A DNA stretch of 62,995 nt, counting the filler, from Reclinomonas americana ATCC 50394 (lineage: Eukaryota), in assembly GCA_048213135.1 (NCBI GenBank). It is 13 parts of 13 records of this genome, joined end to end, with 100 filler letters (N's around TTAATTAATTAA, not from the genome) between each part and the next. Parts side by side here need not be neighbours in the genome. Positions count along the whole stretch, not along the records: positions 42,178 to 46,732 come from AFZH01021696.1; 12 more parts are not named here. One strand, given 5' to 3'. The notes below the pieces were generated by a model. That model was not told where the DNA came from, did not search any database, and was given only the letters and a program-made list of their open reading frames with translations. This document shows, one piece after another, positions 43,287 through 45,073 of this stretch; positions within the stretch are counted from its first letter, which is position 1, and every line of letters begins with the position of its first letter. The translations under genes and the position numbers were made by a program.

Positions 43287-45073
43287 ATGACCGTCAACGC
43301 CGAGTACGACTACCTCTTCAAGCTGTTGCTGATTGTTGCGTACCTCTTCTGCGTGTGTGTGCGTGCGTGTGTGTGTGTGTGCTTGGTGTGTGTGTTTTTG
43401 CTTGAGCTGTTGGTTATTATCAATGCTCACTGACTTGTCTCCCTCGCTCTGCAGGGTGCGTTCACCGACGAGTGACTCCTCTTCACACACAGAGAGACAC
43501 ACACGCGCGCGTTGATGCTTGTTGTGTGTGTGTGTATGTGTGTGTGTGCGTGTGTGTGTTATTTTCGTTTCGCCACGCGTGTGTATGTCTGTGTGTGAAC
43601 TCTCTTTCACGAAAACACGCGCGACTTGCCTCTCACCACCACCCTCCCTACAACTAACCATGCTTCCTTGTGCGTTTGTGCGTGGGATTGGGCGCGCGCA
43701 GGCGACAGCGGCGTCGGCAAATCGTGCCTTCTGCTGCGATTTGCGGTGAGCACACACACACACGCGCCCCCACCTCTCTCTTTCTATTTCGTCCCTTCCT
43801 CCTTGCCATGGAGAAGCACGCGCCACTGGTGTTGTCTTGTGTGCGTGTGCGTGTGTGTGTGAGAGGAGACGTCTGTTTGGGCATGTTGGTCATTTCCGCT
43901 TTCGTCACACACACACGCGCTCACTCATGCACGCACGCACTTGTCTCGGTTGACTCATTCTTGCTCTCTCCTTTTCGTGTCCACCCACAGGATGACACCT
44001 ACACGGACAGCTACATCAGGTCAGTTGAAACACACACGCACGCGCGCGCGCGCGCGTGCATGGCGTTCATCTCCTTTTTGTTGTTGTCGCTGACACAAGC
44101 ACACTCTTGTCCTTGTTTGTTTGGTTGTTGTGTCGCTTGTCGCCTGCAGCACCATTGGTGTCGGTACGGAAAAAGCTCCCCGCTTCGTGATTTGAGTGCG
44201 CGGAGTTGATGATGGGCTCATGTATTGTGTGTGCTTCTGTTGTCCATCACGCTCACAGACTTCAAGATCCGGTGCGACTTGCGCTCTCCCTCACCACACA
44301 CACACTCTTAGCAACATTGATCTGACGATTGCCTGTTCTTTGTTGTTTTGTCTGCTGCCACCCACCAGAACGATTGATTTGGACGGTGAGTGTGATTGCG
44401 GAACAACGACGAGAGTGGTGTGTGTGTTTGGCTGACGGATGATGGCGTGCACAGGCAAGACGATCAAGCTGCAGATTTGGGACACGGCAGGGCAGGAGCG
44501 CTTCCGCACCATCACATCGTCGTACTACCGCGGCGCACACGGCATTATCATTGTGTACGACGTGACGAGCAAGGAGTCGTTCGACAATGTCAAGCAGTGG
44601 CTGCAGGAGATTGAGCGATACGCCAACGAGAACGTCAACAAGCTGCTCGTCGGCAACAAGGTCGACATGGTCTCCAAGAAGCAGGTCCCCACCGAGTCAG
44701 CCAAGGTGGATGCCATCTCTTTGTCTCTCTTCTCGCTGCCGCCGACAGAGATCACTGAATTTGGTGTTGTGTCTGTCTATCTGCCTGCTTGCAGGAGTTT
44801 GCCGATCAGCTGCAAATTCCGTTCCTGGAGACGTCGGCAAAGACGGCCGAGAATGTCGAGAAGGCCTTCTTGACCATGGCAGGAGAGATCAAGAATCGGT
44901 GAGCCACCTCGCGTGCATTGCACCACCGTCTGATTTCTCTCCTCCTCCTCATCATTCTTGTCGTCTTCCGGAACAGAATGGCGTCGGCGCCTCCCAAGCG
45001 CCCTCCGCCAAGCGGCCGCTTGCCGCCGAACCCCTCATCTGGCAAGCAGGTGCAGTCTGGCGGCTGCTGCTAA
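43287..45073 (+). CDS. RAB1: Rab1/Ypt1 GTPase; exons 43287-43334, 43455, 43702-43745, 43991-44019, 44150-44163, 44259-44271, 44369-44385, 44455-44705, 44795-44898, 44977-45073
   Basis: [85 protein letters not shown]...GNKVD...ETSAK...GGCC*. Confidence 0.97.

Follow-up and report, generated by a model that had tools for sequence, protein, structure and literature searches.

Exons of a single nucleotide are known from nuclear genes but are very rare, as the earlier note on the DNA studied here had said and as two published cases bear out. In Arabidopsis thaliana, Guo and Liu (2015; PMC4674806) describe a single-nucleotide exon, A333, in APC11, a single-copy essential gene in which the exon is reported to be used constitutively; their account gives complementary DNA (cDNA) sequencing, genomic resequencing and base-substitution minigenes as proof. 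In Fusarium, Nelson and Syed (2026; PMC12940212) report a one-nucleotide exon in CYP621A, which they describe as the second example. Here we analyze a further candidate, the base G43455 in a Rab1 gene of the protist Reclinomonas americana ATCC 50394 (assembly GCA_048213135.1), located on a 62,995-nucleotide (nt) stretch of DNA that we call the window and along which all positions are counted. As in the published description of APC11, the base sits between AG and GT within an apparent intron, downstream of a branch point; the reading frame depends on it, and annotation had overlooked it.

A related arrangement is the zero-nucleotide recursive splicing reported at Drosophila ratchet points (PMC8605326; bioRxiv 10.1101/006163). 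A one-base exon has also been reported in placozoan mitochondrial cox1, and a plant microexon database is described as covering exons of 1-15 nt. Our full-text literature search returned APC11 and CYP621A as the only nuclear one-base exons, and no case from a protist or from a small GTPase. Judging from the sequence, G43455 is probably a spliceosomal exon one base long, used constitutively by a functional Rab1 gene. This reading is favored by a complete splice site inside the apparent intron, by the range of intron lengths, by the presence of other exons of 11-17 nt in the neighborhood, and by precedents of the same anatomy.

The Rab1 gene model and the base at 43455

The gene lies on the contig at 42178-46732. 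Ten exons, with G43455 among them, encode a stop-free Rab1 of 205 residues ending in GGCC. The parts of the model are as follows; a slash outside brackets marks a splice border, and X1-X4 are public runs considered below.

43287-43334 (+), exon 1: ATG at 43287, 16 codons, ending CTG ATT in phase 0, then GTTGCGT
43335-43454 (+), proposed intron 1: 120 nt, donor GTTGCGT, pyrimidine tract, CAG end
43455 (+), proposed one-base exon: G, first base of the glycine codon GGC of the phosphate-binding loop (P-loop)
43456-43701 (+), proposed intron 2: 246 nt, donor G/GTGCGT, ACTAAC at 43653-43658, GCGCAG end
43702-43745 (+), exon 3: starts GCGACAGC (GC GAC AGC and onwards), right after GCGCAG
43991-44019 (+), exon 4: 29 nt
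44150-44163 (+), exon 5: 14-nt microexon
44259-44271 (+), exon 6: 13-nt microexon
44369-44385 (+), exon 7: 17-nt microexon
44455-44705 (+), exon 8: 251 nt, switch II to G4 region, covered by contigs from four public runs
44795-44898 (+), exon 9: joint 44703>44793 (GT..AG) in contigs of X1 and X3
44977-45074 (+), exon 10: GGCC end and stop codon; joint 44897>44976 (GT..AG, cut +1) in X2

The modeled protein contains the P-loop, the NKxD motif and the C-terminal double cysteine, and is closest to Rab1 proteins, with 75-80% identity over about 203 residues to proteins named Rab1 or Ypt1 by their sources. Exon 3 opens with two-thirds of a glycine codon followed by DSGVGKS. When the end of exon 1 is joined directly to 43702, that codon is one G short and the frame shifts after LLLI; when G43455 is included, the conserved P-loop motif is restored. 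The sequence LLLIGD is present in all 63 Rab1-like homologues examined, and the full P-loop motif in 61 of them. Re-reading and scripts both placed the features described in the earlier note (the end of exon 1, CACTGAC, the pyrimidine tract, AG/G/GT and the start at 43702) where it had put them; its intron sizes of 120 and 246 nt, and its claim that G43455 restores the P-loop, here within the stop-free 205-residue model, were likewise borne out.

The remaining seven Rab1 introns are all GT-AG, with CAG acceptors. A search of 42218-43701 found no alternative first exon on the contig, exon 1 being the sole exon end in that interval with a β1-strand-like translation before GT. About 130 nt 5′ of the start codon, at 43141-43156, stands TAATTAATTAAT, which resembles the core of the linkers between contigs but is not flanked by N and may belong to a natural, AT-rich promoter.

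A search of public runs listed six, none recorded as RNA, and four of them (X1-X4) contain 5-13% of the sampled words. Contigs from these four are 98-100% identical and cover exons 8-10, joined exactly at the modeled borders, so that spliced copies of this Rab1 or of a very close relative exist. The 78-nt skip at the exon 9-10 joint is found in X1, X3 and X4 as well as in X2, and those three runs place the joint 6 nt further left than the GT-AG borders of X2 (44890-44898, 44971-44977). Read from joint tables, the shift fits two synonymous differences, in an Asn and an Arg codon, in a 98%-identical relative. Two synonymous differences near the end of exon 9 would in turn point to purifying selection.

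The base itself is enclosed in CTGCAG/G/GTGCGT, which is the only AG-N-GT in the 367 nt from 43335 to 43701, an interval with 7 AG and 55 GT. Upstream of it, CACTGAC at 43428-43434 places a branch-type A 21 nt before the AG; the two branch-type motifs CTCAC and CTGAC have their A at 43429 and 43433, 25 and 21 nt ahead of the 43454 acceptor, and pyrimidines make up 75% of the 20 nt that lead up to its CAG. The branch motif of proposed intron 2 lies 44 nt upstream of its acceptor.

As a local standard, splice matrices were built from 22 donors and 24 acceptors of Rab1 (the seven uncontested introns), an acetyl-CoA synthetase gene (ACS) and MCM5, with acceptor 43701 left out. The ACS model (C-terminal 257 residues, nine GT-AG introns and one AT-AC intron) and the MCM5 model (C-terminal 637 residues, six GT-AG introns, no stop) were both checked by homology. 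The 22 verified U2-type introns, all of them GT-AG, are 58-245 nt long (median 70.5), and 20 are shorter than 100 nt. Their donors mostly read G/GTG(C/A)G(T/C/G/A): 17 of the 22 have G at -1 and 19 have it at +5, while five have T at +3 and three have T at -1. In an earlier set, a CT[ACG]A[CT] motif was present 12-67 nt upstream in 17 of 20 verified acceptors. Measured against this standard, the sites around G43455 score as follows.

Acceptor 43454: score 10.8; 5 of 24 verified sites higher
Donor 43456: score 7.8; 9 of 22 verified sites higher
Acceptor 43701: score 10.1; 6 of 24 verified sites higher
Exon-1 donor 43335: score -0.1; 20 of 22 verified sites higher

Both flanking introns fit the species' own splice consensus; the upstream donor is low-scoring but matches a verified donor of MCM5. 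The heptamer GTTGCGT is exactly that of the homology-verified MCM5 donor GAA/GTTGCGT at 53298, and a second MCM5 donor, ACA/GTTGAGT at 53007, has a like shape. An alignment of eight homologues or the stop-free model places both cuts before GT, and a cut one base later breaks the frame. Donors with T at +3 (GTTGCGT, GTTGAGT, GTTAGT, GTTCGT and GTTCGA) form a small class at 53298, 53007 and 52504 in MCM5, at 15872 and 16164 in ACS, and at 43335 in Rab1. Two of them, GTTGCGT and GTTGAGT, resemble the local GTG(C/A)GT plus an additional T. In humans, 5′ splice sites of this kind are reported to be recognized by U1 in shifted or bulged registers (PMC4856993), and the GTTGCGT-type donors here may be recognized in a similar way. 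No small nuclear RNA that could give the 5′ end of U1 was detected by Rfam in the window.

Among AG-N-GT sites the one at 43455 stands out. Of the 483 such sites found in a scan of the two strands (123,878 bases other than N), 43455 ranks first by combined score, and no other reaches 5 in both acceptor and donor score. Sites with G as the middle base and both scores at least 2.5 number five: 43455, two verified ACS acceptors that belong to the training set, 36148 and 36187. From this class, 0.006-0.015 sites would be expected per 367 nt. Sites as good as 43455 are expected by chance about 0.003-0.015 times per 367 nt. The string CAGGGT..G occurs six times on the two strands of the window, or 0.017 times per 367 nt.

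Three other composite sites were considered and rejected. Two of the six CAGGGT..G occurrences, at 16233 and 16459, are verified ACS acceptors, i.e., ordinary acceptors of exons that begin GGT, and another candidate, at 4956, falls in DNA that is low in complexity and apparently non-coding.

Very short constitutive exons are also present in ACS, at 15519-15529 (11 nt) and 16151-16163 (13 nt), as well as the exons of 14, 13 and 17 nt in Rab1; microexons thus seem common in this genome, to judge from two unrelated housekeeping genes.

Splicing order, intron history and rival explanations

Two ordinary U2-type GT-AG introns, of 120 and 246 nt, would flank G43455. The sequence carries two full sets of U2-type signals, which share about ten bases; because acceptor factors and U1 could hardly reside on these together, the introns would be removed one after the other. 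If the 120-nt intron left first, the donor context would change from CAGG/GT to ATTG/GT, giving TTG/GTGCGT, a stronger donor. Removing this intron in silico raised the donor score from 6.1 to 9.1 with our first matrices. The introns could also leave in the reverse order. Were 43335 spliced straight to 43701, the G would be left out, the frame shifted and the GTPase destroyed, and reading on past the 43454 acceptor with the second intron kept gives LLLIGAFTDE and then a stop, six codons further on. The one-base exon put forward in the earlier note is thus the best-supported reading, by virtue of the composite site, the donor precedent and the intact gene, while the sequential removal that the note added to it is something we infer.

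Comparison with other Rab genes bears on the history of the two introns. Metagenome contigs were scanned for CAG followed by GN GAY WSN GGN GTN GGN AAR WSN TG, which gave 23 loci. In ten of these (L001, L004-L006, L008, L015, L018-L020 and L023) the upstream exon ends in four hydrophobic residues and the borders read ATH G/GT...AG/GN GAY, so that the P-loop glycine codon is split by a phase-1 intron. The other 13 have continuous frames without an intron, are non-Rab P-loop genes, or have an upstream exon that was not found. The phase-1 intron occurs in Rab1 (L019 and L023), in a group that we take to be Rab2-like from the continuation of its P-loop exon, and in a third Rab type, so that an ordinary form of it is carried by distant Rab loci. 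In L023 it is the sole intron of the gene, and L019 shares with the window's Rab1 a further intron position, after codon 139.

The window's Rab1 agrees with the metagenomic phase-1 loci in acceptor position and phase (CAG/GN GAY) and in having an exonic G directly before the donor. It differs in that their G is contiguous with exon 1 (ATH G/GT), whereas in the window 120 nt with full intron signals stand between ATT and G. Because the phase-1 intron recurs in ten Rab loci, the 246-nt intron is apparently this ancient Rab intron, and the 120 nt between ATT and G are the unusual part. The 120-nt intron looks like a later addition, one base upstream of the phase-1 intron.

No close relative was found, the best protein matches having 87% identity (Rab1 exon 8) and 65% identity (an MCM5 exon) and showing no clear taxonomic affinity. 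A degenerate exon-1 pattern had no matches in the metagenome contigs, exon 1 with its donor had none in a collection of genome contigs, and a protein search with exon 1 plus the open reading frame running into the intron likewise gave none. An introner or repeat origin was considered and dropped: apart from one 18-nt match, none of the nine Rab1 introns is copied elsewhere in the window. Introns 1 and 2 have only a (GT)n tract in common, and the likeness of their 5′ ends is, by eye, donor consensus only.

On this basis we regard the following scenario as reasonably likely. In an intron-rich protist lineage, gain of an intron with an atypical GTT-type donor, one base upstream of the ancient Rab intron, would have created a constitutive one-base exon in the P-loop, with ordered intron removal rebuilding the donor. 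The result would be a coding counterpart of the Drosophila ratchet point, working with introns of 120-250 nt under intron definition.

An assembly artefact is an unlikely explanation, although it has several observations on its side. The genome would have one more G, as ATTGGTTGCGT at 43335 or CAGGGCGAC at 43701, and a single intron of about 367 nt would be left; were this so, the locus would hold no more than the ordinary conserved phase-1 intron. A number of points weigh against a one-base exon and toward such an error. The window consists of 13 draft contigs, each about 2-9 kb long, whose ends lie in microsatellites or homopolymers. The ordinary form ATH G/GT...AG/GN GAY, found in 10 of the 23 loci, two of them Rab1, is a single G away from the window's form, and loss of one G after 43335 would convert the one into the other; none of the 23 loci has a one-base exon or an exon that ends at the Ile codon before GT. 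The exon-1 donor at 43335 scores only -0.1, whereas one base downstream it scores 3.4 and matches the consensus except for T at +1, which would be the look of a mutated or mis-called ordinary donor. The hypothetical donor TTG/GTTGCGT scores -0.5 with the first matrices, within the verified range. The matrices themselves come from 22 and 24 sites of three genes, and the chance background includes coding DNA and may understate the chance in GT-rich introns by perhaps 2-3 fold. The run contigs cover exons 8-10, and none falls on 43200-44453, where exons 1-7 and the junction lie, which counts neither for nor against either reading.

Against an assembly error, the composite site would have to be there by chance, and even at a background 2-3 fold higher than estimated the chance of such an internal site would be a few per cent at most. 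The error would have to be a rare one falling on either of two exact positions, with a chance internal site besides. No frameshift was found in about 3.3 kb of verified coding sequence from the three genes, and the run contigs on exons 8-10 (186-443 nt, near-identical) run without gaps. A single 367-nt intron would exceed every verified intron in length; it would be the longest of 23 and five times the median. In the CAG/GGC version, moreover, the intron would leave the conserved phase 1.

A single non-canonical intron removed in one step is quite improbable. It would be either TT-AG (ATTG/TTGCGT...CAG/GC) or GT-CA (ATT/GT...GCGCA/GGC), and its messenger RNA (mRNA) would be identical to that of the one-base exon, so that mRNA alone could not tell the two apart. 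The higher score of the register one base downstream, with T at +1 as its only mismatch, speaks for the TT-AG form. On the other side are the two MCM5 donors of the form GTTG(A/C)GT, one with the identical heptamer and both cut before GT, which argues against a TT-AG intron at exon 1 of Rab1. Splicing chemistry almost invariably requires G at +1 and an intron that ends in AG. All 22 U2-type introns are GT-AG, and the lone exception among the verified introns is a clear U12-type AT-AC intron that is unlike the one in Rab1. One-step removal would also leave the complete internal site unexplained.

A U12-type reading of 43335-43701 was rejected. U12-type introns have a donor ATATCC or GTATCC and a branch site TCCTTRAC close to the 3′ end, and neither the donor motif nor the branch motif is present there.

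It is highly improbable that the locus is a pseudogene or gives mainly a truncated product (LLLIGAFTDE and stop) while a functional Rab1 lies elsewhere. In favor of this reading, the two obvious exons are out of frame at face value, read-through from the 43454 acceptor soon meets its stop, and a paralogue may lie outside the window's contigs. Against it, all other exons and seven other introns are intact, and the protein is complete to GGCC. Exons 8-10 are moreover represented, spliced and at high word depth, by contigs from a 98%-identical relative and from three further runs, and the differences near the end of exon 9 fit synonymous changes.

Other features of the window

The window joins its 13 contigs with twelve 100-nt linkers, each composed of 44 N, TTAATTAATTAA and 44 N. 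Because it is made of joined short contigs, genes on either side of a linker need not be genomic neighbors. The linkers and three further features are listed below.

3339-3438, linker
9866-9965, linker
15328-15427, linker
21316-21415, linker
25601-25700, linker
28279-28378, linker
34612-34711, linker
37694-37793, linker
42078-42177, linker
46733-46832, linker
49083-49182, linker
58499-58598, linker
56476-57564 (-), open frame matching Pfam YL1 nuclear protein, E 1.6e-07
58543-59664 (-), open frame matching Pfam animal haem peroxidase, E 1.3e-29
60829-60913 (+), tRNA-Leu (anticodon TAA), the only Rfam or ARAGORN match in the window

The AT-AC intron of ACS is at 16556-16636 (+). It starts with ATATCCTTT, has TCCTTGAC 17 nt before its 3′ end and ends in CAC, motifs that we take to match the U12-type consensus. 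Its removal restores this segment of ACS at the exact length of the homologues, while read-through adds 27 in-frame residues. A U12-type AT-AC intron in ACS means that the organism appears to have a minor spliceosome. The same gene has two in-frame CAG acceptors 15 nt apart, at 16771 and 16786, which may be an alternative 3′ splice site adding five residues; homology fits either.

In MCM5, at 51586/51587, a verified acceptor stands directly before GTGCAAGG (TGTGCAG/GTGC), so that AG adjoins GT where a genuine exon begins. An acceptor followed immediately by donor-like sequence is therefore tolerated in this genome.

Comparison with known one-base exons and ratchet points

If G43455 is indeed an exon, it would, by our literature search, be a third nuclear one-base exon, the first in a protist and the first to fall in the nucleotide-binding loop of a housekeeping GTPase, and would mean that no exonic sequence is needed for splice-site recognition between two short introns, and its 367 nt would offer a compact natural substrate for studying the sequential use of overlapping 3′ and 5′ splice signals. 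Gene finders would mis-annotate such genes as frame-shifted or truncated. More generally, exons of 11-17 nt, GTT-type donors and a U12-type intron call for splice models made for this genome.

The two published nuclear cases differ from Rab1 in their details. As described, the APC11 exon is an A that lies 333 nt into an apparent intron of 422 nt, and the base in Rab1 is a G in the P-loop glycine codon. The CYP621A exon, by its published account, is closer: it too is a G in a conserved glycine codon within CAG/G/GT, and it too was deduced from the reading frame, an overlong apparent intron and the fit to consensus. In CYP621A, however, the base is reported as the middle one of its codon, conserved in 20 orthologues and supported by reads from the Sequence Read Archive (SRA), whereas in Rab1 it is the first base of the codon and the case is built on sequence.

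The likeness to Drosophila ratchet points lies in an acceptor and a donor juxtaposed in an apparent intron, with a 5′ splice site that is remade and used second; in Rab1, regeneration of the donor was found in silico. Ratchet points are described as AG/GT sites that leave no base behind and serve the stepwise removal of very long introns. The Rab1 site has a G between AG and GT and so is not a zero-nucleotide ratchet point; the G would be kept in the mRNA, the two introns and the G together span 367 nt, and the base is needed for coding. If confirmed, the site would thus join a known, very rare class, that of APC11 and CYP621A, rather than represent a new kind of exon.

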